Shown one piece after another: positions 21,152-41,316 of a DNA stretch of 64,000 nucleotides (the stretch's first letter is position 1; every line of letters begins with the position of its first letter). The stretch covers positions 192,001 through 256,000 of the forward strand of contig JAWAKK010000002.1 in the NCBI GenBank assembly GCA_038887515.1, written 5' to 3'. The position numbers and the translations under genes were made by a program. The notes under the pieces are model-generated. The model did not search any database, was not told where the DNA came from, and was given only the letters and a program-made list of their open reading frames with translations. The stretch comes from Candidatus Nezhaarchaeales archaeon (lineage in GTDB: Archaea; Thermoproteota; Methanomethylicia; Nezhaarchaeales; WYZ-LMO8).

Positions 21152-22969
21152 TTGTGCGGGATTTTTGGTTGTACTTCGCTTAAAGAGGGCGTCTCAAAGT
21201 TAATTTACGTTTCTCTGAAAAAGCTAGAGTATAGAGGGTACGATTCTGTAGGCTTGGCAACCACGTATGGCGGGTATATATTTTTAAAGAAGGATCAAGG
21301 AAAGATAGAAGAAGTGGACAACAAGCTCCGTCTCGATACGTTGCCGGGAAGGTGCGGAATAGGACATACTCGATGGGCTACTCACGGTGCGCCTTCGAAG
21401 GAAAACGCTCATCCGCTAACGGATTGCGAAGGTAAAATAGCAGTAGCTCATAACGGAATCATAGAGAACTGTCTAGAGTTACGTAAAAAGCTAGAGCTTG
21501 AAGGTCACAAGCTCCGCTCTAGAACCGATAGTGAAATTATAGCCCATCTGGTAGAGGAACTAATTGGTAAAGGGTTTACATTAAAAGAAGCTGTTAGGCA
21601 GGCGGCGCTAAGCCTAAGGGGCTCCTCGGCCTTCGTAATCATCTCTGCGCTATTGGAGGATACTATTGTCTGTGTCAGGATGGGAAGTCCCTTGGTTATA
21701 GGTCTCTCGCACGACTTCGTGTGTTGTTCATCCGACGTGCAGGCTCTCCCTCAAGAAGTGGAAGGTATCATAATAATGAATGAAGGGGAACTTGCAGTAC
21801 TTACGCCGAAGGCGGTAATTATCGAGGATCTTGAGTCTGGACGCTCACTACCGCTCAGGACCTTGACTAAAGAAAGCATAGTTTATTCAGCTGATAGAGG
21901 AAGCTTTGCCCACTACATGATTAAAGAAATACATGAAGAGCCTCAAGTTGCGTTAAACATCATTAATGCACCCCATCAATTTGTACAGAACCTAGCTAGC
22001 GAACTCCTAAAGTCTGATAGAGTGTACTTAATTGGCTGTGGAACATCATACCACGCTTGCATCTTCGGCTCTTACGTACTGCGCTTTATGGCCGACATCG
22101 ACGCCTACCCTATAGTGGCGTCGGAGTTTAATGGTAATTACATAAATTTAAGAGGCAAAACGGCCGTGCTAGCCATATCTCAGTCCGGAGAAACGGCCGA
22201 CGTATTGCAAGTCTTGAGGTTACTTCAAGGAAAAGACGTCAAGTTGCTAGCCTTAACTAATGTTATGGGGTCTTCGATAACAAGGCTTGTTTCATCATAT
22301 GTAGGGCTCTATGCAGGCCCCGAAATGGGAGTAGCCGCTACTAAGACCTTTCTAGCTCAACTATTAATGCTCACGAGGATAAGCTTAGAGGCCGCAAAGA
22401 TCAAGGGTCTAAATAATGACATCGTTTTAGGCGCTGAACGATTCTTGATTTCCTCGCCAAGGCTTATAGGGCGAGCCGTCAAGGTCAATGAACCAATAGC
22501 GATGAGCATATCAGCGAACCTATCTTTAAAGGATAGTGCCTTCTTCTTAGCAAGAGGCGTGAACATAGTCACAGCCCTTGAAGGAGCCTTAAAACTTAAA
22601 GAGATAAGCTATGTTCATGCTGAGGGCTATCCTGCCGGAGAGTCTAAGCATGGTCCAATAGCTCTCGTAGACAAGGGCTTTCCATGCATTTTCATTTGCC
22701 CCCGCGACGAGACTTACGGTAAGATTGTAGGCAATATAATGGAGATGAAAGCTAGGGGCGCCTTCACAATTTCATGCGTAGAAGAAGGTGATAAGGAGGT
22801 TAAGGAGATTTCAGATAAAATTTTCGTACTTCCCGAGGTAGACGTTAAAATATTAACACCCATACTTCACGTAATACCACTCCAACTTCTAGCTTATTAC
22901 GTTGCCGTTGCAAGAGGATATGATCCCGATAAGCCTCGAAACCTCGCTAAATCTGTTACAGTCCCTTAA
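21152..22969 (+). CDS. glmS: Glucosamine--fructose-6-phosphate aminotransferase
   Basis: MCGIFG, LEYRGYDS, GHTRWATHG, SQSGET, PRNLAKSVT. Confidence 0.97.
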   Translation: MCGIFGCTSLKEGVSKLIYVSLKKLEYRGYDSVGLATTYGGYIFLKKDQGKIEEVDNKLRLDTLPGRCGIGHTRWATHGAPSKENAHPLTDCEGKIAVAHNGIIENCLELRKKLELEGHKLRSRTDSEIIAHLVEELIGKGFTLKEAVRQAALSLRGSSAFVIISALLEDTIVCVRMGSPLVIGLSHDFVCCSSDVQALPQEVEGIIIMNEGELAVLTPKAVIIEDLESGRSLPLRTLTKESIVYSADRGSFAHYMIKEIHEEPQVALNIINAPHQFVQNLASELLKSDRVYLIGCGTSYHACIFGSYVLRFMADIDAYPIVASEFNGNYINLRGKTAVLAISQSGETADVLQVLRLLQGKDVKLLALTNVMGSSITRLVSSYVGLYAGPEMGVAATKTFLAQLLMLTRISLEAAKIKGLNNDIVLGAERFLISSPRLIGRAVKVNEPIAMSISANLSLKDSAFFLARGVNIVTALEGALKLKEISYVHAEGYPAGESKHGPIALVDKGFPCIFICPRDETYGKIVGNIMEMKARGAFTISCVEEGDKEVKEISDKIFVLPEVDVKILTPILHVIPLQLLAYYVAVARGYDPDKPRNLAKSVTVP

Positions 22970-23983
22970 GCCTTCTTAGATCTATTGTATCGAAGACCTC
23001 TGGACCGGTGCTGATTATTGTTATTGGAATCTTTAGTTCTTCTTCAACGTTCTCTATCCATTCCTTAGCTTCACGTGGTAGCTTATCGTATTCTCTAACT
23101 CGTGAAGCTCCGGGGAAGAGCGTGTCTATCCTGGTTATGGCTATTTGGGTTGCGCTGTTAGCCATGACAGCCCTTTTGGCTAATTCAAAGTTAAATGGTG
23201 CAACCCTCCTCTTCCTCCCAGTCACGGTTGCAACTTCTATGAGCCCTAGCCTTTGAGCCTCTTCTTCTGAAAGTTCGCCGGGTAGTGGTCCGCTTCCAAC
23301 CCTAGTCACATAAGATTTAAAGACTACAATAACCTCGTCGACCATCTTAGGACCTATACCCACCTCACTGCAGACGGCTGAAGCAGTTGTATCGCGACTT
23401 GTGACATAAGGATAAGTCCCGTGGTAAAGAGATAGATAGTACCCCTGGGTCCCCTCAAGGAGCACGTTATGACCTTGATCAAGTGCCCTCCATACTAGTG
23501 TAGGCACATCATCAAGATAATCCCTTAGTTCTCCTACATCGCGAGCGAGCCTAGCCACCCTCCTGACTCTATCAACTATTGCGGCTCCAACGCCTTGGCC
23601 CGTCGATCCTATCTTGGACATTAAGTGTTCATCTTCCCGCTCCCTCTTTACATGTTCTTCTTCGATTATGGAGGCTTGTGGGTCTATCTTCAACCTGTCT
23701 TTAGCTTTAGTGAGTTCAAGCTCCCTCATTAAAACGTCGATTCTCAAATTGGCTCCAGCCGCTATGCATAATTCGGCTCGAGGGTTTACAAACCCGCAAG
23801 GTATAATCCTCAACTTGTATTCCTTGTTATTGTACATTACAGTGTGGCCTGCGTTAACCGACCCTGTTCTAACAGCTACTCTGACGTCATCTTTAAGTGC
23901 CAAGTAGGCACATACTTTTCCTTCTAGGGGGCTAAAGCCTTTCCCTCGTCCCCGAAAAAGCCTCCTACAACTACCGTCAGCAA
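22956..23983 (-). CDS. purA: Adenylosuccinate synthetase, intron-containing (exons 23983-23941 and 23923-22956; 336 aa spliced)
   Basis: Exon 1 gives MLTVVVGGFFGDEG; removing a 17-nt BHB intron gives KGKVCAYLALKD..., joining the 315-aa ORF (NAGHT, GSTGQG, EGTQG, YPYVTS, TGRKRR). Confidence 0.93.
23924..23940 (-). other. 17-nt BHB-type intron in purA mRNA
   Basis: mRNA AGGG AA^A GGC UUUA GCC CCCU AG^A; removal restores GDEGKGK. Confidence 0.88.
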
Positions 23984-25074
23984 GCCTCTAACCCCCAGAA
24001 TGGTCCTAAAACCTTATCGTAAACTTCTTTTATAACTCTTAGACCGCTTTTCTTCACACTCTCCGACGAGGTTGTGCTGCCTTCTTCAATTATAGGCAAG
24101 TCTATAAGGTACGCAATTATATCGTACACTCCTCTTGCAAGGCCCGGGCCATATCCTCCTTCAAGCACGAACATTATCTTTTTCGTCACACATTCATCCA
24201 TCATTTTCTTGACGAACTTGGCTACCTTTAGGAAGGAGTTTAATGAAAGGTTCATCGATGTTATCGGGTCATCCTTGTGGGCATCAAATCCGGCTGATAA
24301 CAATAACACTTCCGGTCTATACTCTCTAACGACCCTTTCTACAACTTTATCTAGCGCTACTTCGTAGAGGTCGTCACCTGTAAAAGGAGGTAGCGGAACA
24401 TTAATGTTAAAACCTTTCCCCTCTCCTTCACCGACTTCATCAACAAACCCTGTACCGGGATATGCTGTCCTTCCATCTTGATGCGTACTTATATAGAGAA
24501 CGTTATTGTAGCTGTAGAAAATCTCTTGAGTACCATTTCCGTGGTGACAATCAAAGTCGAAGATTGCTACCTTCTTAAACCCGTACTTGTCGAGTAAATG
24601 CGTTGCTGCTATAGCGATATTGTTAAATATGCAAAAACCTAATGTCGGAGCCCCTAAAGCTGCCCCACTCCTACCGGCGTGGTGTCCTGGAGGCCTCTCT
24701 AAGGTGAAGCAGAAGTCGAAGCCTTCTTCTATCAGTTTCTTGCATCCTAATACTGCTGAACCAGCAGCATAAAGTGCGACTTCAAAACTATCCTTTGATA
24801 CGGGCGTATCCGGATCAAGGTACCTCTTGCCATCTGTAATGGTTCTATCTACCCACTTAATGTAATCAATGTCGTGAACTGCAGCTACTTCTTCTATCGA
24901 TGCCTTAATTGCTCTTTCAACCTTAACTTTAGATAGTACCCCTCTCCCCTTTAGCTCATTAATGACTTCAATGAGCCTTTGCGGCCTCTCAGGATGATGA
25001 GGACCCGTGTCATGCCTCAAAAACACATCATCATATATTATGCAGAGTTTAGAAGTCATTAGTCGAAACACCAC
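23977..25074 (-). CDS. Histone deacetylase family protein
   Basis: HPERPQR, RPPGHHA, GFCIFNN, DFDCHHGNGTQ, SAGFDAH, LEGGY. Confidence 0.95.
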   Translation of the reverse strand: MVFRLMTSKLCIIYDDVFLRHDTGPHHPERPQRLIEVINELKGRGVLSKVKVERAIKASIEEVAAVHDIDYIKWVDRTITDGKRYLDPDTPVSKDSFEVALYAAGSAVLGCKKLIEEGFDFCFTLERPPGHHAGRSGAALGAPTLGFCIFNNIAIAATHLLDKYGFKKVAIFDFDCHHGNGTQEIFYSYNNVLYISTHQDGRTAYPGTGFVDEVGEGEGKGFNINVPLPPFTGDDLYEVALDKVVERVVREYRPEVLLLSAGFDAHKDDPITSMNLSLNSFLKVAKFVKKMMDECVTKKIMFVLEGGYGPGLARGVYDIIAYLIDLPIIEEGSTTSSESVKKSGLRVIKEVYDKVLGPFWGLEAC

Positions 25075-25137
25075 TCGTTTTTAAGCTTTAAACTTTAAAT
25101 AATCTTTTCACATCATTGAGAAGTTGGTGCAAATGAG

Positions 25138-25770
25138 TTGAGCTCTAGAGTTGAACTAAAACCTACGCGAATGGAGCTAATAAATTTAAGGCGTAGAAAG
25201 AGACTCGCCGAAAGAGGTCTTACTCTTCTTAAAGAGAAGCGCGACGCCCTAGTTATGGAGCTGTTGTCATTGGCCAAGGAATACCAGAATGTCATGCTCG
25301 AAGTAAGGGAGAAAATGGAGAAGGCATTAAGCTACCTTGCGCTGGCTAGGGCTGATGTAGGCGTATTTAAACTTAACGAGATAATAGCTACTTTGCGGTC
25401 TCAAGTAGCCATAGAAATTAGGACGAGAAGCATAATGGGGGTCACGACGCCTATGTTTAAAGTTGTACAGAAGGTGGAGACAGACGTTCCGCCATATAGT
25501 CTTCCAAGCACCACTACCTACATAGATGAAGCCGCTAAAGCCTTCAGGGAGTTATTTGTAACGATAATAAGGCTTGCAGAGATTCAAGCAGTAGCCAAAA
25601 GAATAGCTGAAGAGGTCGAAAAAGCCAAGAGGAGGGTCAATGCCCTTGAGCACGTTGTTATACCTATGATCGAGAAAAATATCAAGTTCATAGAACTCTA
25701 TCTAGATGAGCGGGCTCGCGAAGATATTTTTAGGTTAAGGCTTCTCAAGAAGAAGCGTGTAAAGAAGTAG
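25138..25770 (+). CDS. atpD: A/V-type ATP synthase subunit D
   Basis: PTRMELI.L, LLKEKRDAL, RRVNALEHVVIP. Confidence 0.95.
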   Translation: MSSRVELKPTRMELINLRRRKRLAERGLTLLKEKRDALVMELLSLAKEYQNVMLEVREKMEKALSYLALARADVGVFKLNEIIATLRSQVAIEIRTRSIMGVTTPMFKVVQKVETDVPPYSLPSTTTYIDEAAKAFRELFVTIIRLAEIQAVAKRIAEEVEKAKRRVNALEHVVIPMIEKNIKFIELYLDERAREDIFRLRLLKKKRVKK

Positions 25771-25776
25771 TTTTTC

Positions 25777-26139
25777 CTACTTGCTCCTCAGGTACAATAT
25801 TGCTCGTGCTAGATCGCCCTTGGTCGCTTTCAATGCCTTTCTAGCCTCTTCAAGACTTACGCCAGCTTGAGATGCAACTAATTGAACGTCCTCCTCTTGT
25901 ATATTCGGCTCCTCTTCAAGTACTAGAGCTCTTTCTTCAACTTCGCCCGTCACTTGGAAAACCGTTTGATCCCCCACCTTCATGCTAGTAACCTGAGGTT
26001 TCCTTACGACCAGCTCTCTATCTCGAAATTTAAATACGACGCTCTCAACGCCTTCGAGCTGTTCAACTGATATTCCAGCCTTCTTAACTGCTTGCAACAT
26101 CCTCTGTAGCTCTCTCGGGCTTATCCCCCTCACCTTCAA
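25777..26139 (-). CDS. nac: Nascent polypeptide-associated complex protein
   Basis: NAC domain plus UBA: EEDVQLVASQAGVSLEEARKAL...GDLARAI. Confidence 0.93.
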   Translation of the reverse strand: MKVRGISPRELQRMLQAVKKAGISVEQLEGVESVVFKFRDRELVVRKPQVTSMKVGDQTVFQVTGEVEERALVLEEEPNIQEEDVQLVASQAGVSLEEARKALKATKGDLARAILYLRSK

Positions 26140-26611
26140 TCCCCCTCCTAATTTTCACTGCCACGCCTAAATTAAATGCTAGCATTTCGTAACCAGATAG
26201 TATGGCTCGGCCAACAGCCAACAGATCGTCTCTTTCGTCAACTACGAGGACCTCGTCGCCACATCGAATTTCTGGGTCAACTCTAATTACATGCTTCGCA
26301 AAAACGCTCTTCCCTTTTTTTATGAAATCTTTCACTTCCTCTTTAACGACTACCCTAAGCTTGGGTGGAGGGAAGTGCTTCAATAGGAGCTTAGCCCCCT
26401 CAATCGTTAGTGCCAAGAACCCGTCATTCCATCTAACTGTTGCTAGGAGCCTTCCTTCAGAGTCGTATACGTATCGTGGTTTTCCAGTCCTCTTTGAGAC
26501 CTCCACTCTAAGTCCTCTTGAAGCCAGCGCTTCGCCAGCTCCAGCTCCGAACTGGTAATCGGCACGCATCTTCACCGATTCCACTAAAATTTTCTCGCTT
26601 AAGCAGGCCAC
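26084..26611 (-). CDS. PUA-domain protein (TGT C-terminal-like)
   Basis: ADYQFG, GKSVFAKHV..DPEIR.GDEVLVV, GVAVKIR. Confidence 0.88.
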   Translation of the reverse strand: MACLSEKILVESVKMRADYQFGAGAGEALASRGLRVEVSKRTGKPRYVYDSEGRLLATVRWNDGFLALTIEGAKLLLKHFPPPKLRVVVKEEVKDFIKKGKSVFAKHVIRVDPEIRCGDEVLVVDERDDLLAVGRAILSGYEMLAFNLGVAVKIRRGIEGEGDKPERATEDVASS

Positions 26612-26666
26612 AATACATTTTAGCTTAAAGTTGTAGATTAATATCTAGCGTTGCGAGGTTTAGAAA

Positions 26667-27134
26667 ATGTTGTGCGAGCTTTGTGGCAAACCAGTAATGG
26701 GGAAACCAGTTAAAGTTTGGATTGAAGGGGCGCAATTAACGGTTTGTCAACGATGTTCCCGCTATGGTTCTATCGTGAAAACCGGGACCGCAACTACTGT
26801 CCGTCCACAGGTTCAATTGAAGCGTAGAGGGGTAAAACTAGGCGTCGAGAACCTAGTTTTGGTTAATAATTACAGTGCCCTCATCCGTCAAGCGAGGGAG
26901 AGCATGGGCTTAACGCAAGCCGATTTAGCGCGTTTGATAGGCGAGAAAGAGTCCATAATACGTAGACTTGAGGGTGGTCGTATGGCTCCTACACTGGAGC
27001 TTGCTAGAAAGCTCGAGAAGCAATTGAAGATAAGGCTATACGAAGAGGTACACGAAACCCAAGAAGTGCCTAGGCCTCAGAGCTTTCAGCTAACTTTAGG
27101 TGATGTAGCAGTAATAAAGGAACGGAACGAGTAA
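26667..27134 (+). CDS. mbf1: Multiprotein bridging factor aMBF1
   Basis: CELCG...VC..C Zn ribbon, HTH, TLGD motif. Confidence 0.93.
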   Translation: MLCELCGKPVMGKPVKVWIEGAQLTVCQRCSRYGSIVKTGTATTVRPQVQLKRRGVKLGVENLVLVNNYSALIRQARESMGLTQADLARLIGEKESIIRRLEGGRMAPTLELARKLEKQLKIRLYEEVHETQEVPRPQSFQLTLGDVAVIKERNE

Positions 27135-27152
27135 ACCCCCTTTATCTGCCAA

Positions 27153-28262
27153 CTAGAATTGTTGTTCAACAATTTCAACTTTCTCGATTATTTTTTTAAG
27201 AAGGAAGCTTACGTTGACGCCCTTCCTAGCGCTGATGGGCACGATGTCGCATTGAGGTGCCAAGTCCTTTATTAATTTTAACGATTTTTCAAGTCGTGAA
27301 TCTCCTATTAAGTCTATCTTGTTGGCAGCTATTATTACGGGCTTGTTGTCGCCTGCTATCTCAGAGATTATCGACAGCGAAGTCGTAAGCTTCCTCTCAA
27401 TTTTTGAGGCAGTCTCGGAAGAATCTATCAACAACGTTACTACGTCAGAGAGCCTTAACTCTACAAGCGTTGCGTGGAACGCATCAAGTATTAAGTGCGG
27501 CATTTCATCGATGAATCCGAGAGAATCTACAACTATGAAGTCCTTACCTTGTGCATTAACTCTCCTAGCGCAAGTCTCGAGTGTTGTGAAGGGCCCGAGA
27601 CCCGTCACCTTGCCCTCCTTAGTTAGGAGGTTAAATAAGGTGGTCTTACCCGACTGAGTGTAACCCGTTAATGTAACTATCGGTAAACTTATCTCCTTAC
27701 GTTGAAAGACTAATTTTTCCTGCCTCTTCTTCAATTCTTCCAGCTTATCTTCTATAAGTTTGATTCTCCTTCGGGCAAAGGAAAGGTAAGCCTTATAAGG
27801 ATAGCCTCCAAGCGACCCGAAACCCATTTTCTCGCTACCAAAGCCCTTTAACCTGACGAGCTCTCGAGCCCAAGGCAATGTATACCTTAGCCTAGCGAGC
27901 TCTATCTGAAGCTTTGCCTCCGAAGTAGAAGCCCTCTTATCGAAGATGTCCAGGATCAACAGTACCCTATCCAAGATGTTCACATCGAGGCCTAACTCCT
28001 TTTGTAGCCTAAAGTATTGTCCGGGCTTTAATTCGTTAGCGAAAACTACGGTCTTTACGCCATACCTTTTTAGCCTTTCCTTTAGTTCCTGAAGCTTTCC
28101 CGGTCCTATTAGGAACCCAGCGTGAGGCCTTTCCCTTATCTGGATTACCTTGTCGACAACTATGAAGCCTCTGTTCCTCGCTAGCTCCTCGACTTCCTGA
28201 AGCCTGAAGTCATCATTTCTCTGGAAAACTCCAATGATTATAGTCTTCTCCAAGTCCGTCAC
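27153..28262 (-). CDS. hflX: GTPase HflX
   Basis: LILDIF..RA...EAKLQIELA, GYTQSGKTTLFN, NKID, ISA. Confidence 0.92.
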   Translation of the reverse strand: MTDLEKTIIIGVFQRNDDFRLQEVEELARNRGFIVVDKVIQIRERPHAGFLIGPGKLQELKERLKRYGVKTVVFANELKPGQYFRLQKELGLDVNILDRVLLILDIFDKRASTSEAKLQIELARLRYTLPWARELVRLKGFGSEKMGFGSLGGYPYKAYLSFARRRIKLIEDKLEELKKRQEKLVFQRKEISLPIVTLTGYTQSGKTTLFNLLTKEGKVTGLGPFTTLETCARRVNAQGKDFIVVDSLGFIDEMPHLILDAFHATLVELRLSDVVTLLIDSSETASKIERKLTTSLSIISEIAGDNKPVIIAANKIDLIGDSRLEKSLKLIKDLAPQCDIVPISARKGVNVSFLLKKIIEKVEIVEQQF

Positions 28263-28792
28263 CTTAAGATCTTGACCTTTTTGCCTCTAGGGCTGGGTTC
28301 GATTTCAATCCTTCCACCCTCAAACTTGAAGTTAAATTCTACTCCATTGTAGAACCAGTCGAGAAACACGGCTACAGCTGCTACTTCGCTATGTGGTTGA
28401 TTTGTTACGGAAACGTTAAAGTCTGCTACTTCGTAGAAGTATTTAGGGACTTTAGGCCCTCCAACAAGCACCATTAGCCTTTCCTTACGTCTAATCTCCT
28501 CTATGATTTGGGGGAGGGGGATGCCGTACATGGTTAAATGTACTATGCAGAAGCCCTCTTCCTTCGCCCCCTTTATGACTTTGTTAATATCGATCCCGGT
28601 CTTCACTACAAATTCTCCGCCGAACATTCTATTTACTTGAATAACCTTCTGCTCCAACTTTTCATCTTTCCCATCAAACCATATCTCGCGGGCCCCAAAA
28701 GCTCTAGCGACAAGCGCCAAGTGCGTACTAACTCTTTTATCTCGAAGGGGTCTATGACCATACCTTACTATCACTATTTTTGGTCGGCACAT
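28259..28792 (-). CDS. trm56: tRNA (cytidine56-2'-O)-methyltransferase
   Basis: GHRPLRDKRVSTH, VHLTMYG, NQPHSEVAA. Confidence 0.95.
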   Translation of the reverse strand: MCRPKIVIVRYGHRPLRDKRVSTHLALVARAFGAREIWFDGKDEKLEQKVIQVNRMFGGEFVVKTGIDINKVIKGAKEEGFCIVHLTMYGIPLPQIIEEIRRKERLMVLVGGPKVPKYFYEVADFNVSVTNQPHSEVAAVAVFLDWFYNGVEFNFKFEGGRIEIEPSPRGKKVKILR

Positions 28793-28860
28793 CGGTTATT
28801 AATTTAATAAGCATTTTTTTAAACTTGCTAGGGGCATTATACCTGGGTGGCAGAGAATTC

Positions 28861-29388
28861 ATGGTTTCGGAGCCCTCAGAGCAATACGATAAAGAGTTGA
28901 CAAACGTACTATTGAAGCTGATTGCAGTACTTTGTGGCAAAGACGCCATCGAAGTAGTCAAAGTGTTACTTAACGAGAAGGAGATGAGTGACGAGATACT
29001 AGCCGAGAAAACGGGTATGAGACTTAACCAAGTTCGACGAATCCTCTACGACCTTCTGGACAAGCACGTCGTGACTTACCAGAGAGGGATAGATGAAGAA
29101 AGGGGTTATTACGTGTACACTTGGTCTCTGAATAGGGACGGCCTAAAGGAGATAGTGAAGGAGAGAAAGAGGCTAGTCTTAGAGAGACTGCGCGAGAGAA
29201 TTCGATACGAGGAGCAGAACATGTTCTTCGTTTGTCCCAACAGTTGTACTGGTAGGATGCCCTTTGATAAGGCTTTGGATCAACAGTTTAAATGCTTGCG
29301 TTGTGGCGCAGTACTGCAAAGCTTCGATAACACCAAGATGATTGAGAAGTTAAGGGCAAAAATAGAGGCGTTAGAGAAGGATCCTTAA
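28861..29388 (+). CDS. tfe: Transcription factor E (alpha)
   Basis: wHTH (DEILAEKTG...VRRILY.L), YVYTW, C..C...FKCLRCG. Confidence 0.92.
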   Translation: MVSEPSEQYDKELTNVLLKLIAVLCGKDAIEVVKVLLNEKEMSDEILAEKTGMRLNQVRRILYDLLDKHVVTYQRGIDEERGYYVYTWSLNRDGLKEIVKERKRLVLERLRERIRYEEQNMFFVCPNSCTGRMPFDKALDQQFKCLRCGAVLQSFDNTKMIEKLRAKIEALEKDP

Positions 29389-29486
29389 GCGTAGTTACGA
29401 TGTAGAGTTACCTCCTAGAGAGCTTAAAGGACAAGATACGTAAGTTTTATCTTACCTTAGGGGTAGAACCAATCCTTGTGGGTTTT

Positions 29487-31176
29487 ATGAAATACATTTT
29501 CATTACAGGAGGTGTTTTATCAAGCGTAGGTAAGGGGGCCGTGACTGCTTCGATAGGCAAGATGCTCCAGGTTAGAGGCTTTTCTGTAACGGCAATAAAG
29601 ATAGACCCATAGGCCTTAGGGGCCGGGTAAACATAAACGTTGATGCTGGAACAATGAACCCATAGGCTCTGAGCTGGAGGCTTAGAGCCGGGTATATATG
29701 CATGGCGAGGTCTTCGTGACGGAGGATGGCGGCGAGGTAGACCTAGATCTCGGTCACTATGAGCGTTTTCTCGATATAGACCTATCAAAGGACAACAACA
29801 TTACGACTGGACAAGTGTACATGGTGGTCATAGAGGCCGAGAGGAGGGGGAAGTACCTCGGCAAGTGCGTACAAATAATACCTCACATAACCGACGAGGT
29901 GAAGAGGAGGATAAGGTTAGTAGCTCAGAAGAGCAACGTGGACGTGACGCTCGTAGAATGTGGAGGCACAACGGGGGACATAGAGGGACTCCCCTTCCTT
30001 GAGGCTATAAGGCAAATGAGACTTGAAGAGGGCTTTTCGAACACGCTCTTTGTTCATGTAGCCTTAGTTCCAATATTGGAAGTAACTGGAGAATTTAAGA
30101 CGAAACCTCTACAACACAGCGTCCAAGAGCTTAGACGCATAGGTATACAGCCCGACATCGTAGTGGCAAGGTGTAAGCAGCCGCTAGACGATGAAGCCAA
30201 GAAGAAAATAGCGCTTTACAGCAACGTCCCTGAAGAGGCGGTGTTCACGTCTTACGATGTGGACTGCATATACGAGCTTCCAATAATACTTGATGGACAG
30301 GGAATGGGCGCTTACATATGTAAGCGGCTTACGCTAGATGGATGTAAAGCCGACTGGTCTTCGTGGAGGGAGATAGTTGAGAGGTATAGAAGTTTTAAGT
30401 ACGAAGTCGAAGTATGCATGTGCGGTAAGTACACGAAGCTAAAGGACTCTTACATAAGCATAATAGAGGCCTTAAAGCATGCGGGCGCAGCCCTTGAAAC
30501 TAAGGTTAACATGACATGGCTCGAGGCAACAACGTTCGAACAAGGAGAGGGCATACCTCGAGAGTTTCAGGATATTTTGAGTTCCTGTGATGGCATAATA
30601 GTACTGCCGGGCTTTGGGGCCCGTGGGGCAGAAGGTAAGATTAAGGTCATCAGATACGCAAGGGAAAACAAGGTACCGTTCCTGGGCATATGCTTTGGAA
30701 TGCAACTGGCAATTGTAGAGTTTGCACGAAACGTTGTAGGTCTCAAAGAAGCAAACACAACAGAACTTGATCCGTCAACGTACCACCCGGTTGTTGACCT
30801 CCTACCGGAACAGCACTACGTTAAGGAAGTAGGTGGTACTATGAGACTCGGGGCTCAGGCAACCGTGCTTGAACCCGGAACGAAAGTCTACGAGCTTTAT
30901 GGAAGGCCGATAATATTTGAAAGGCATAGGCATAGGTACGAGGTCAACCCGACCTACTGGTCTGTACTTCAAAGCCACGGTTTGGTCTTCTCCGGATATA
31001 GCATTGATAAACGGAGGGTGGAGTTCATAGAGCTCAGGGACCACCCATTCTTTGTTGCAACTCAATCGCACCCAGAGTTCAAGTCGAGGCCCAATAGACC
31101 CTCACCCATATATTACGGCTTCGTGAAGGCCTGCCTCGAGCATAGGCTTAAGAGATTATCAGCTCCGAAATGCTGA
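29487..31176 (+). CDS. pyrG: CTP synthase with two introns (exons 29487-29610, 29631-29663, 29696-31176; 545 aa spliced)
   Basis: Exon 1 [17 protein letters not shown]...KIDP; exon 2 [11 protein letters not shown]; exon 3 [12 protein letters not shown]...GICFGMQ...HPEF. Confidence 0.95.
29611..29630 (+). other. 20-nt BHB-type intron 1 in pyrG mRNA
   Basis: ACCC AU^A GGCC UUAGG GGCC GGGU AA^A; removal gives GAC CCA UAC AUA AAC (DPYIN). Confidence 0.9.
29664..29695 (+). other. 32-nt BHB-type intron 2 in pyrG mRNA
   Basis: ACCC AU^A GGCUCUGAGC UGGAG GCUUAGAGCC GGGU AU^A; removal gives AAC CCA UAU AUG CAU (NPYMH). Confidence 0.9.
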
Positions 31177-31186
31177 TGGTCAAAGG

Positions 31187-33688
31187 CTATGAACGCTTGA
31201 ACGAAGCATAAGCTTCTCGCATCGCTTCTACGAACCTCCTCGTAGCCTCTTCGGGGTTTGAAGACCTTGTTATCGCTGAGCCTACAATTATTATCTTGCA
31301 ACCACTTTTGACCAATTCTCTTATGTGCTCAAGCCTAACTCCGCCGGCTACAGCGACGGGTACCTTCACGGAATTGACTACTTCCTCAACGAGCTTTATC
31401 TTCCTAGTTACGTCCCTCTCCCTCATTTGCGTACTTATGCCCATATGCACGCATATTATATCGCATCCCAACTTCTCAACCTCCTTTGCCCTGGCGAGTG
31501 GATCCTGTACATTTATCAGGTCACACATTATCTTGACGTTGTACTTCCTAGCAGCACCTACAGCATCTTTAATAGTGTAGTCGTCGGTAGCGCCCAACAC
31601 CGTAACTACATCAGCCCCAGCTTCGGCTGCAAGCTCCACTTCGAGCCAACCCGTGTCAAAGGTTTTGAGGTCGGCTACTATAGTAGCATAAGGGAACCTC
31701 CTTCTAAACTCCTTCACTGCTTCTAGGCCAGCGGACTTTATGAGTGGGGTCCCAACCTCGATGATCTCGGCTCCTCCTCTATAGCAGGCCTCGGCTATGC
31801 TTAGCCCATCTTTCATATACCTTTCATCTATTGCTACCTGTAGCTTGGGCCCCGTGTAGAGGGGCTCGAGACCTAACTGCTGGAGCTTCTTGTCTGTGGG
31901 TACTCCGTGATAGTTCCAGCCTCTAATAGCATAATAAGAATCGATTAATCTCGTTAGGTCGACAACTTCTCCCTTGGATGCCCCCTCTCTCAACTTTTCA
32001 TTTAAGAAGCGTAGCGGCAGAGCGTCGTGGCTTCTATCGAAACCCTCTCTGGCGTTGAAGAGCCTTTCCAAGTTGTATATCCTCTCTCCTATCTTGTAGA
32101 ACTCCTCTTCGTCAACGTAGAAACCAGTTGCTGTTGTTAGTAGCCTCGCGTAATGGGTTGGCTCGTAAGCCAGCGTCGAGAATAAGGCTAGCATTGTAAA
32201 TTTGCACATTATCAACGAGTCTATTACGGCCGAGACGTCCTGCATCCTCTTGACGAGCTCTGCCTTACCCTCATAGGACAGAGGATCTATGTACTTGGGG
32301 ACGCCAAGGATCTCGCTGATCACGACGTAGGCCCTTAAGTGGCACCCTCCTCTATTAGAAGTTGCGTAAGCTAACGCCATCCCTTTAGCTCCTCGAGGAT
32401 CGTAAGCTGGTAGCTCTAGACCCTTTACGTGGGCTGCTATGTCTTCGGCGTTAAGCATCTTTGATATTCGGCTAACGCCTTCGCCCACGATTTTACCTAG
32501 ACCTCTCCTATACGCTGTATCGACTATAACCTTTAGTAAGGAGTCCGAATTGCCAAAATTGAGTTTTATGTTCACTTCGCTAAGCTTCTCTAATAGTCCC
32601 TTCTCATAACACTCCATTAAGAAGCCTACGGTGTTCCCCAGCGAAATCGTATCAAGACCCAATTTATTGCATAAGTCGTTTGCTCGAGCTATGACGTTAA
32701 TATCCGATATACCGCAATTCGGCCCTAAAGCCCATACACTTTCGTATTCTGGGCCCGAGGATATGACTTCCTTCCCATCAACAGTGTACTTCACTAAGCG
32801 GCCGCACGCTATTGGACATCCGTAACATGCCGTCCTCTTCACGAGCATTACTTCAGTTATCTTCTCTCCGCAGACTTCTTCTGCTTTATCGTAGAAGCCT
32901 CGCGTAAAGTTGTAGGAAGGAAAGACGCCTGCCCTATTCATCAGGTGCACTAGGAATGCCGTGCCGTAGCGCCCTAAGCTATCTCCGGTAATCGGATTCC
33001 CCCTTAACACGTCGAGCGTCTTCCTAACTTCTTCATTGAAAGCCTTTGGATTAGCTACTTTAACTTCGCCGGTCCCCTTAACTGCTATAGCCTTTAAATT
33101 CTTGGATCCCATGACTGCGCCTAGGCCACCCCTACCCGCGGCCCTGTGTTTATCGCTTATGATGCAAGCAATCTTTACGAGGTTTTCGCCAGCTGGACCA
33201 ATACAGCAAACCTTAACGTCCTCCAGCTTTAAATCTCTCTTTATTTCCTCTTCCGTAGCATCTGTTTCAAGACCCCAAATCTTACTTGCATCTCGTAGCT
33301 CGACTTTTCCGTCAGCAACGAATAGGTATACGGGGCTAACGCTCTTTCCTCTAACTATTATTCCATCGAAGCCAGCTTTCTTCAGCTCAGGTCCCCATGA
33401 CCCTCCGCACTGAGAGTCAAAGATTGTGCCGGTCAAAGGTGACTTCGAGGATACAGCAAATCGACCTGATGTAGGCGCCCTTGTCCCAGTCAAGGGCCCA
33501 GTCATAAACACTAGGATGTTTTCCTCATCTAGAGGGTTAGTACCTGGCCTTAACGAGTCGAAGAGGAACTTCGCCGAGTATCCTCGGCCGCCCACGTACT
33601 TCATAGCTATATCCCAGTTGAGATCTACGATGGTCACGTCGCCACTAGACAAATCTGCATCTAGTATTTTGCCTGTATAGCCGCTCAA
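31187..33688 (-). CDS. Tungsten aldehyde:ferredoxin oxidoreductase fused to C-terminal 3-hexulose-6-phosphate synthase domain
   Basis: AOR motifs KSPLTG, GRGGLGAVMGSKNLKAI, CYGCPIAC, GPEYE, RGGCH; the last ~220 aa have LQVAID, EVGTPLIK, ADLKTFDTG, VAGG. Confidence 0.9.
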   Translation of the reverse strand: MSGYTGKILDADLSSGDVTIVDLNWDIAMKYVGGRGYSAKFLFDSLRPGTNPLDEENILVFMTGPLTGTRAPTSGRFAVSSKSPLTGTIFDSQCGGSWGPELKKAGFDGIIVRGKSVSPVYLFVADGKVELRDASKIWGLETDATEEEIKRDLKLEDVKVCCIGPAGENLVKIACIISDKHRAAGRGGLGAVMGSKNLKAIAVKGTGEVKVANPKAFNEEVRKTLDVLRGNPITGDSLGRYGTAFLVHLMNRAGVFPSYNFTRGFYDKAEEVCGEKITEVMLVKRTACYGCPIACGRLVKYTVDGKEVISSGPEYESVWALGPNCGISDINVIARANDLCNKLGLDTISLGNTVGFLMECYEKGLLEKLSEVNIKLNFGNSDSLLKVIVDTAYRRGLGKIVGEGVSRISKMLNAEDIAAHVKGLELPAYDPRGAKGMALAYATSNRGGCHLRAYVVISEILGVPKYIDPLSYEGKAELVKRMQDVSAVIDSLIMCKFTMLALFSTLAYEPTHYARLLTTATGFYVDEEEFYKIGERIYNLERLFNAREGFDRSHDALPLRFLNEKLREGASKGEVVDLTRLIDSYYAIRGWNYHGVPTDKKLQQLGLEPLYTGPKLQVAIDERYMKDGLSIAEACYRGGAEIIEVGTPLIKSAGLEAVKEFRRRFPYATIVADLKTFDTGWLEVELAAEAGADVVTVLGATDDYTIKDAVGAARKYNVKIMCDLINVQDPLARAKEVEKLGCDIICVHMGISTQMRERDVTRKIKLVEEVVNSVKVPVAVAGGVRLEHIRELVKSGCKIIIVGSAITRSSNPEEATRRFVEAMREAYASFKRS

Positions 33689-35628: not shown

Positions 35629-35931
35629 GGTGCCGGGAGAGGTCGGGCAGCCTTCGGGCGCTCCGTGCGCCTGAGGAAAGTCCCCCTCCGTCGGGGAGCG
35701 CGGCGCCGTAAGGCGCCAGCCGAGAGGCTGGGGGTTAAGCCAAAGAAACGACACGCCTACCAACTTATGGCCATGATGGGCCCAAAACCTTGAGGACGTT
35801 GGTAGAAGCGTTGAAACGTGGCGACCCCCGCGCGGAATAAGGTGTGCCACGATGAGCCCCCGATGAGTGGCGTACCGCATTAGTCGGATGCTGCTTAAAC
35901 AGAAGGGGGATTACGAACCTCACCCGGCACC
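35629..35931 (+). ncRNA. rnpB: RNase P RNA
   Basis: GAGGAAAGTCCCCC and AAACAGAAGGGGGATT (P4 halves); terminal helix GGTGCCGGG/CCCGGCACC; upstream TTAAATA. Confidence 0.93.
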
Positions 35932-36010: not shown

Positions 36011-36235
36011 GTTGCAATCACTATTCCTTATGCACCACGGTGGCGGTGTCGAACGGACTGTGAGGGGCTTCTTCTGGCCCCTAGAATGAAAGTTCGACCT
36101 CCAGCCGTGGGATACTAGTGGGGATCCAAACAAACCGAGCCCATTGAAAGCTCGGATGTTTGGGTCCGACGTGGGGTTGGCGGAGCCCGGTTATCTAGGA
36201 TGACCCCGCTAGGGGTCTTGCGGCCGCTCTTCCGA

Positions 36236-37737
<1,502 letters not shown>

Positions 37738-37868: not shown

Positions 37869-37905
37869 CATAGGTCTATGTCCTGCCCGTAGCCCGTGGG
37901 CTCAA
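37869..37905 (+). other. 5' strand of 23S pre-rRNA processing stem with canonical BHB (pairs with 41043-41079)
   Basis: GUCCU GCCC GUA GCCCGUGGGCUCAA / UUGAGCCCGCGGGC GGGU AAA AGGAC. Confidence 0.88.
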
Positions 37906-37909
37906 TGGT

Positions 37910-41040
<3,131 letters not shown>

Positions 41041-41141
41041 TTTTGAGCCCGCGGGCGGGTAAAAGGACGTAGACCTATGCGCGGCGGACCCTTTCTTACA
41101 TTGGCAAAATTTTTAGTGTCCTTTCTATAGTCTCTCATTTT

Positions 41142-41232
41142 GGGCTCGTAGCTCAGCATGGTCAGAGCGCTCGGCTGATAAGATGTCTCAGACACCGAGA
41201 GGTCGGGGGTTCAAGTCCCCCCGAGCCCACCA
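41142..41232 (+). tRNA. tRNA-Ile(GAT) with 13-nt intron at 37/38 (41181-41193); CCA encoded
   Basis: GGGCTCG acceptor stem; CTCGG-CT GAT A[AGATGTCTCAGAC]A-CCGAG; BHB CUGA UA^A...UCAG AC^A. Confidence 0.93.
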
Positions 41233-41242
41233 CCCTTCGAGA

Positions 41243-41316
41243 GGGCCGGTAGATCAGCCTGGTGGATCGCCCGCTTCGCAAGCGGGAGGTCGCGGGTTCA
41301 AGTCCCGCCCGGTCCA
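41243..41316 (+). tRNA. tRNA-Ala(CGC)
   Basis: Cloverleaf, CCCGC TT CGC AA GCGGG anticodon arm, G3:U70 pair. Confidence 0.94.

Follow-up and report, generated by a model that had tools for sequence, protein, structure and literature searches.

How does an archaeon make adenylosuccinate synthetase when the only purA found in its genome is broken, just 43 nt into the reading frame, by an insert that carries a stop codon? The question is posed by the minus strand of the window, a 64,000-nt stretch of DNA (C2:192001-256000) from a 1.29-Mb genome of the Methanomethylicia (Nezhaarchaeales-like) that is assembled in 9 contigs and is 94% complete. We conclude, with a probability of roughly 0.87, that the 17 nt in question are an archaeal bulge-helix-bulge (BHB) intron of the relaxed H-B-h' form, lying within the coding region of purA in the phosphate-binding loop (P-loop) GDEGKGK. 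This reading was already put forward in a first-pass annotation of the same DNA, and it is now supported by the single copy of the gene, by the conservation of the insert among relatives, by compensatory changes in its RNA structure, by restoration of the reading frame in 28 of 28 distinct sequences, and by the presence of EndA and RtcB.

The minus-strand TTG at 23983 starts MLTVVVGGFFGDEG, after which direct reading of the sequence gives K-A-L-A-P-stop. The insert (23940..23924, minus, 17 nt, a length not divisible by 3) is AGGCTTTAGCCCCCTAG and contains an in-frame TAG. From the unspliced RNA only a 19-residue peptide could be read. When the 17 nt are excised in silico, a PurA of 336 aa results, ...GGFFGDEGKGKVCAYLALKDD, in agreement with the length and the restored E-G-K-G-K given by the first-pass annotation. 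Aligned with 11 uninterrupted homologues, this spliced protein is 60-65% identical and the junction is free of gaps. The features of the locus are as follows.

23941..23983, minus strand: purA exon 1, 43 nt; TTG start, MLTVVVGGFFGDEG and the first base of the Lys codon, ending within the loop between GDEG and KGK.
23943..23946, minus strand: H5' strand of the central 4-bp helix (AGGG), in exonic Glu and Gly codons; its partner is CCCT at 23929-23926.
23940..23942, minus strand: bulge 1 (AAA), with the predicted 5' cut after its second base.
23924..23940, minus strand: predicted BHB-type intron, 17 nt; third base of bulge 1, hairpin, CCCT and two bases of bulge 2.
23930..23939, minus strand: inner hairpin h', GGC-TTTA-GCC; 3 bp and a 4-nt loop.
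23926..23929, minus strand: H3' strand of the central helix (CCCT), intronic.
23923..23925, minus strand: bulge 2 (AGA), with the predicted 3' cut after its second base.
22956..23923, minus strand: purA exon 2, from the remainder of the Lys codon to the stop; includes the listed 315-aa open reading frame (ORF).

The listed purA ORF (315 aa, 22956..23903, minus) begins downstream of the loop, and the earlier observation that it lacks its N-terminal P-loop is borne out by the profile search. Exon 2 matches the Pfam family Adenylsucc_synt at 2.4e-69, and a search of the whole genome with that family matched exon 2 only from profile position 13, so that the loop is absent from the exon-2 frame. 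A second intact purA, which would have spoken for a decaying copy here, was found neither by protein search nor by Pfam family search of the 94%-complete genome. Upstream, the stop codon of a 365-aa ORF (23977..25074, minus) overlaps the purA TTG start at 23977-23983, and because of this overlap the two genes are probably co-transcribed.

Every element of the fold proposed in the first pass, AGGG/CCCU, AAA, GGC-UUUA-GCC and AGA, is present at its place in the sequence, as are the insert and its reading frame. In the transcript, as folded in silico, the exonic AGGG would pair with the intronic CCCU, and this helix would be flanked on one side by the AAA bulge and the small intron hairpin and on the other by the AGA segment. 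A two-subunit EndA would then cut after the second base of each bulge and RtcB would join the exons, which would rebuild the Lys codon of GDEG-K-GK and allow a normal 336-aa adenylosuccinate synthetase to be translated. We infer cleavage, ligation and translation of the spliced purA mRNA by analogy with the cbf5 pre-mRNA intron.

The insert is widely shared. A protein search with exon 2 found purA in 39 of 41 related genomes, and among the 30 of these loci that were read, 13 carry an insert at the same Lys codon and 17 have an uninterrupted GDEGKGK. All 10 genomes of the window's family, from 4 genera, have the insert, as opposed to 0 of 5 in two sister families of the same 15-genome order; in a second Methanomethylicia family it is found in at least 21 of 32 genomes. 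A class-wide pattern search returned 47 matches in 45 of 62 genomes, against 6 matches for the reversed control pattern. Ten of the 47 are purA of the window's family and 22 are purA-type matches in the second family, for 21 of which the context was read, G042 being assumed to be purA by its likeness to G024. Five of the 47 lie outside purA and pyrG: those in G012 and G013 are uninterrupted ORFs, and the others are in G044 and are second matches in G019 and G032.

A scan of named records placed the same inserts in metagenome-assembled genomes (MAGs) titled Candidatus Nezhaarchaeota or Nezhaarchaeales, Candidatus Methanomethylicia, Methanomethylicus and Methanosuratincola, with purA context in 25 of 41 stretches. 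The other 16, mostly bacterial, have no purA context and were taken as chance. Cultured Methanosuratincola strains (loci L062 and L093) carry, in their complete genomes, a homologous insert of 28 nt, and the purA intron is common to more than 30 species-level genomes. Apparent stops inside purA in four relatives are located past the C-terminus and are not introns. The second family also contains two intron-free species (L103 in G036 and L104 in G022) though their congeners carry the insert. In one of the two, the loop codons no longer fit the helix sequence; both uninterrupted loops look like recent precise losses of the intron. One species of the same family has a variant second bulge, AUA.

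The 28 distinct insert-bearing sequences allow the logic of the frame to be followed. When each bulge is cut after its second base, 28 of 28 read GDEGKGK(V/I), with insert lengths of 16, 17, 18, 22, 28 and 30 nt whose three classes modulo 3 hold 7, 11 and 10 sequences. All 10 inserts with a length that is a multiple of 3 contain an in-frame stop. Since all three length classes occur and excision restores the loop in every case, no single recoding rule suffices. Exon 1, short as it is, behaves as coding sequence: across its codons 4-14 the 10 family genomes show 189 synonymous and 9 non-synonymous pairwise codon differences, which argues that it is translated in its own frame under purifying selection. 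The start codon is at the same place in 9 of the 10 (TTG, ATG or GTG) and the tenth has an ATG one codon upstream. Within the family, PurA proteins are 74-86% identical.

The RNA structure is conserved together with the frame. A 4-bp helix between two 3-nt bulges on opposite strands is present in the window and in 28 of 28 distinct sequences; bulge 1 is invariably AAA and bulge 2 invariably A-N-A. In an alignment anchored at both ends, the tested structure of 4 + 5 pairs is 97.1% paired, a level that none of 500 column shuffles attains (86.4 +/- 1.4), and its covariation score is 0.240 compared with 0.091 in the shuffles, while structures slid by 1 to 3 columns are 41-71% paired. The central helix is 99% paired, and RNAalifold, unaided, returns the same central helix and hairpin. 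At the outer position of the central helix the window's family has A-U, where the second family has G-C or G-U; the third hairpin pair varies among C-G, U-A, U-G and G-U. Every sequence has hairpin h', which covaries and ranges from 3 bp to the 9 bp of other genera. The purA helix (AGGG/CCCU) differs from that of the introns predicted in pyrG (ACCC/GGGU), a difference that the first-pass annotation had drawn correctly from the two genes.

The motif, as read from the sequence, is the relaxed H-B-h' form of the BHB, an assignment made because no helix stands directly beside bulge 2; the remark in the first pass that there is no clear outer helix was fair. A candidate outer pairing of 8 bp, between the Phe-Phe codons and exon 2, shows up in the folds beyond a 7-nt/4-nt internal loop. 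The motif by itself is no rarity: both strands of the 1.29-Mb genome, scanned loosely, hold 14,346 BHB-like shapes. What stands above chance is the exact restoration of the frame together with conservation and covariation. No Rfam family matched over 23900-23990, and the only Rfam match in 23700-24200 was a sub-threshold snoRNA elsewhere in that interval, at 17.4 bits against a cut-off of 48.

Several observations weigh against a BHB intron in purA. Five of the nine pairs, three of the four in the central helix and two in the hairpin, are invariant and so uninformative either way, and the genomes compared are kin, hence the shuffle control overstates significance. Folding energy by itself fails to single out the motif in the short forms. 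For the window's 61-nt segment, the minimum free energy (MFE) structure pairs different bases and does not outdo shuffled sequences (z = 0.19); constraining the fold to the BHB costs 1.3 kcal/mol relative to the MFE (-17.0 against -18.3); and the central helix appears in the MFE of 0 of 10 family sequences and of 11 of 28 overall. The canonical outer helix is missing next to bulge 2. The window has a heptamer, G GGA AAG, of the form X XXY YYZ and in the right frame for slippage. Finally, no reads fell on 22900-31200 of the window in a sample of about 3% of each of two metatranscriptomes from the same study.

The genome encodes proteins that would be required for splicing. Two tRNA_int_endo proteins are present, of 191 aa and 178 aa. 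The larger aligns end to end with the catalytic EndA subunit of A. pernix (2.6e-48), also matches that of P. aerophilum, and has Lys at both positions equivalent to K44 and R46 of the crenarchaeal specificity loop. According to the available part of PMC3241643, the Crenarchaea-specific loop of EndA gives the enzyme broad substrate specificity. The smaller protein is divergent, with weak matches to known structural subunits, and the two would together form an (alpha-beta)2 EndA. RtcB is also encoded (5.2e-181), and ARAGORN predicts an intron in 18 of 46 tRNA genes.

Could the ribosome itself hop over the insert, or could a machinery other than EndA and RtcB remove it? Ribosome hopping is exemplified by phage T4 gene 60, and bypass elements typically look like a short gap that contains a stop codon and a hairpin. 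The purA insert resembles these in being a short coding gap with just such a stop and hairpin, and EndA is linked to the site by geometry, not by experiment. That geometry is nevertheless exactly of the EndA type, a 4-bp helix with 3-nt bulges in 28 of 28 sequences, and it recurs in the cbf5 intron of the same genome at the published crenarchaeal position. Bypass would also fit poorly with the product, as the conserved protein needs a landing triplet GAA that matches neither the Lys nor the Gly take-off codon, and landing on the matching GGA deletes two loop residues. We therefore consider this alternative very improbable.

Programmed frameshifting deserves still less credence. Here the ribosome would slip by -1 on the G GGA AAG heptamer noted above and read through the 17 nt, giving a PurA whose loop is six residues longer. 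A path with a single shift is available, the exon-2 frame being open back through the insert, and a hairpin does lie downstream of the heptamer; it begins directly at the heptamer's end, without the usual spacer. Frameshift sites usually have a spacer between the slippery heptamer and the structure. The product would moreover alter an invariant loop that is uninterrupted in 17 of the 30 relatives' loci, and the need for the same shift is not conserved: one lineage would require -1 and others +1, and 10 sequences stop read-through. The insert changes freely in sequence and length while its pairing is kept, which fits RNA structure and not coding.

A decaying pseudogene or an assembly error, with no PurA produced from the locus, is the least probable alternative, for although the insert breaks the frame and has a stop, gene callers would find a truncated ORF, and the assembly is in 9 contigs and 94% complete, the same insert occurs at the same codon in independent assemblies (every one of the 10 family genomes, and at least 21 in the second family), both purA exons are under purifying selection, the protein and Pfam searches returned no further purA, and a DNA contig from a public run has the stretch letter for letter, though this contig is possibly the source of the assembly and not independent of it.

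If purA is read as carrying a BHB intron, it does not stand alone. As judged from sequence, the genome holds at least eight BHB-type introns in seven genes, purA included. The list is a lower bound that comes from stricter scan filters and Pfam checks. Three loose scans of the genome had given 9,617, 5,464 and 2,182 ORF-joining candidates, mostly ordinary boundaries of adjacent genes, and candidates with a normal start downstream (for example C1:228713-228731 and C1:100303-100320) were dropped. The predicted introns beyond purA are these.

29611..29630 of the window, plus strand: pyrG intron 1, 20 nt; ACCC-ATA-hairpin-GGGT-AAA.
29664..29695 of the window, plus strand: pyrG intron 2, 32 nt; ACCC-ATA-hairpin-GGGT-ATA.
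C2:333915-333935 (L101), plus strand: cbf5 intron, 21 nt, after the first base of the catalytic Asp codon.
C2:24144-24175, plus strand: aIF2-gamma intron, 32 nt, after DCPGHE.
C1:3238-3267, minus strand: uS5 intron, 30 nt.
C1:10133-10162, minus strand: intron in an IF-2B-family protein, 30 nt, after THC.
C3:12273-12294, minus strand: HypD intron, 22 nt.

The two introns of pyrG, which encodes CTP synthase, enclose a middle exon of 33 nt and are present in 10 of 10 family genomes, with compensatory changes in their hairpins. In the window's family the pair shares the flanks ACCC-AUA-GG ... CC-GGGU-A; the hairpins of the genome itself both start with GGC, and the third base differs in two relatives. 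The single-sequence MFE of intron 1 shows the helix, bulge and hairpin, and the fold of intron 2 has z = -2.75. In the DNA run, one contig that comes from another organism lacks precisely the intron 2 stretch. For Cbf5, Pfam matches to different domains flank the insert. An intron at this published position would extend the range of the cbf5 intron to the Methanomethylicia. In aIF2-gamma and the IF-2B-family protein the Pfam matches cover consecutive profile ranges on either side of the insert, and in uS5 and HypD only exon 2 is matched, beginning inside the profile.

Three other families of the class have an insert in the S-V-G-K-G loop of pyrG (L115-L118, L120, L123-L126 and L130), with flanks GGGG-AAA-GG ... 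CC-CCCY-ARA like those of the purA intron. In these families purA is uninterrupted, and among the loci read the two genes never carry the insert together. The flanks common to the G-K-G inserts of purA (two families) and pyrG (three families) are GGG-AAA-GG ... CC-CCCY-ANA. Across the class, the introns appear from their sequences to be placed where nucleotide-binding or catalytic codons are most conserved. That purA and pyrG, two unrelated genes, have one type of intron in the same codon string may be due to movement between sites or to a constraint common to both, the latter being conceivable because the exon must supply half of the helix. Single genera contain both intron-bearing and intron-free species. 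It is possible, though doubtful, that mobile BHB mini-introns colonise conserved nucleotide-binding codons in housekeeping genes of the Methanomethylicia and that mRNA splicing by the tRNA machinery is routine there. Ligation by RtcB uses GTP, and because it does, one may speculate that splicing of the purA, pyrG and aIF2-gamma mRNAs could tie the expression of these genes to the supply of GTP.

Further downstream the window also holds several RNA genes, recorded here as side observations.

35635-35925, plus strand: RNase P RNA.
36235-37737 and 37902-41046, plus strand: 16S-23S rRNA operon.
41142-41229 and 41243-41316, plus strand: two tRNAs.

The first of these tRNAs (41142-41229) is 88 nt long against a model of 71 positions; the ARAGORN prediction is a tRNA-Ile that contains a 13-nt intron. 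Elsewhere in the assembly, contigs C6-C9 (6.6-7.7 kb each) are G+C-rich, with Arg- and Pro-rich ORF translations unlike those of the main contigs, and may be foreign to the organism.

If purA is spliced, the splicing of protein genes in archaea would be more than a one-gene curiosity, and one 1.29-Mb genome would hold at least eight introns in seven genes, at active-site or nucleotide-binding codons. The group would offer a tractable system for the gain and loss of tRNA-type introns in protein genes, because cultured Methanosuratincola strains bear the same purA intron, and it would allow one to ask whether such introns act as selfish elements in indispensable codons, as inteins do. There is also a practical consequence. 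Gene callers shorten intron-split genes or label them broken, so that metabolic reconstructions from MAGs would wrongly score purA, pyrG, aIF2-gamma and others as defective.

A BHB intron in the coding region of cbf5 was reportedly found by Watanabe in 2002, and its splicing is said to have been shown experimentally, whereas that of purA is deduced from sequence. In Crenarchaeota, according to the available part of Yokobori 2009 (PMC2738675), the cbf5 intron interrupts the catalytic Asp codon after its first base and, like the purA insert, falls within the codon of a residue essential to the active site. The same part of that source (PMC2738675) ties it to hetero-oligomeric EndA and describes a patchy distribution with secondary losses, further points of likeness to purA. 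The purA intron differs in that its host is the gene of a metabolic enzyme, in its lineage (Methanomethylicia, as opposed to Desulfurococcales and Sulfolobales), and in belonging to a set of at least eight spread over seven genes of a single genome.

The non-canonical tRNA introns cut by (alpha-beta)2 EndA, as presented in the portion of PMC3241643 drawn on here, resemble the purA intron in their 4-bp helix and 3-nt bulges and in that a relaxed form is tolerated. The catalytic EndA subunit of the present genome retains the Crenarchaea-specific loop, with Lys at the K44 equivalent. At 17 nt, the purA insert is within the range of 11-175 nt given for tRNA introns in the part of PMC2738675 available. 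In contrast to tRNA introns, the purA substrate would be an mRNA without a tRNA body, its Glu and Gly codons form the exon half of the helix, and the frame must survive.

Another BHB intron in an mRNA, that of HVO_1309 in Haloferax volcanii, lies in the 5' untranslated region (UTR), as far as the accessible text of PMC7714728 describes it. It too is an EndA substrate in an mRNA and not in tRNA or rRNA. As described there, and unlike purA, the intron is in an untranslated region with no frame to restore, and the host is euryarchaeal with another type of EndA.

In HAC1 and XBP1 a short coding intron is removed without the spliceosome, by an endonuclease and a joining step of the tRNA-ligase type, and the reading frame is changed. 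The purA intron is likewise a short coding-mRNA intron that would be removed without a spliceosome, whereas HAC1 and XBP1 use a different endonuclease and stem-loop signals, in a regulatory stress response. IRE1/RtcB splicing of HAC1/XBP1 mRNA, a eukaryotic process, is named in PMC13149111.

The available text of the 2020 paper on HVO_1309 (PMC7714728) says that, apart from the 5'-UTR case, a single other BHB intron was on record, that in crenarchaeal cbf5 mRNA, and a 2025 paper on EndA structure (PMC12397907) cites in its reference list the cbf5 papers alone for mRNA introns. Among the papers searched, cbf5 is the only archaeal gene with a BHB intron reported within its coding region. The searchable literature, outside of which lie subscription journals and supplements, returned no report of a BHB intron in purA and none of protein-gene introns for Verstraetearchaeota, Methanomethylicia, Nezhaarchaeota or Methanosuratincola. 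Neither the purA intron nor the other new host genes appear in that literature, and the mechanism proposed for purA is, by analogy with the systems compared here, the BHB type already known.

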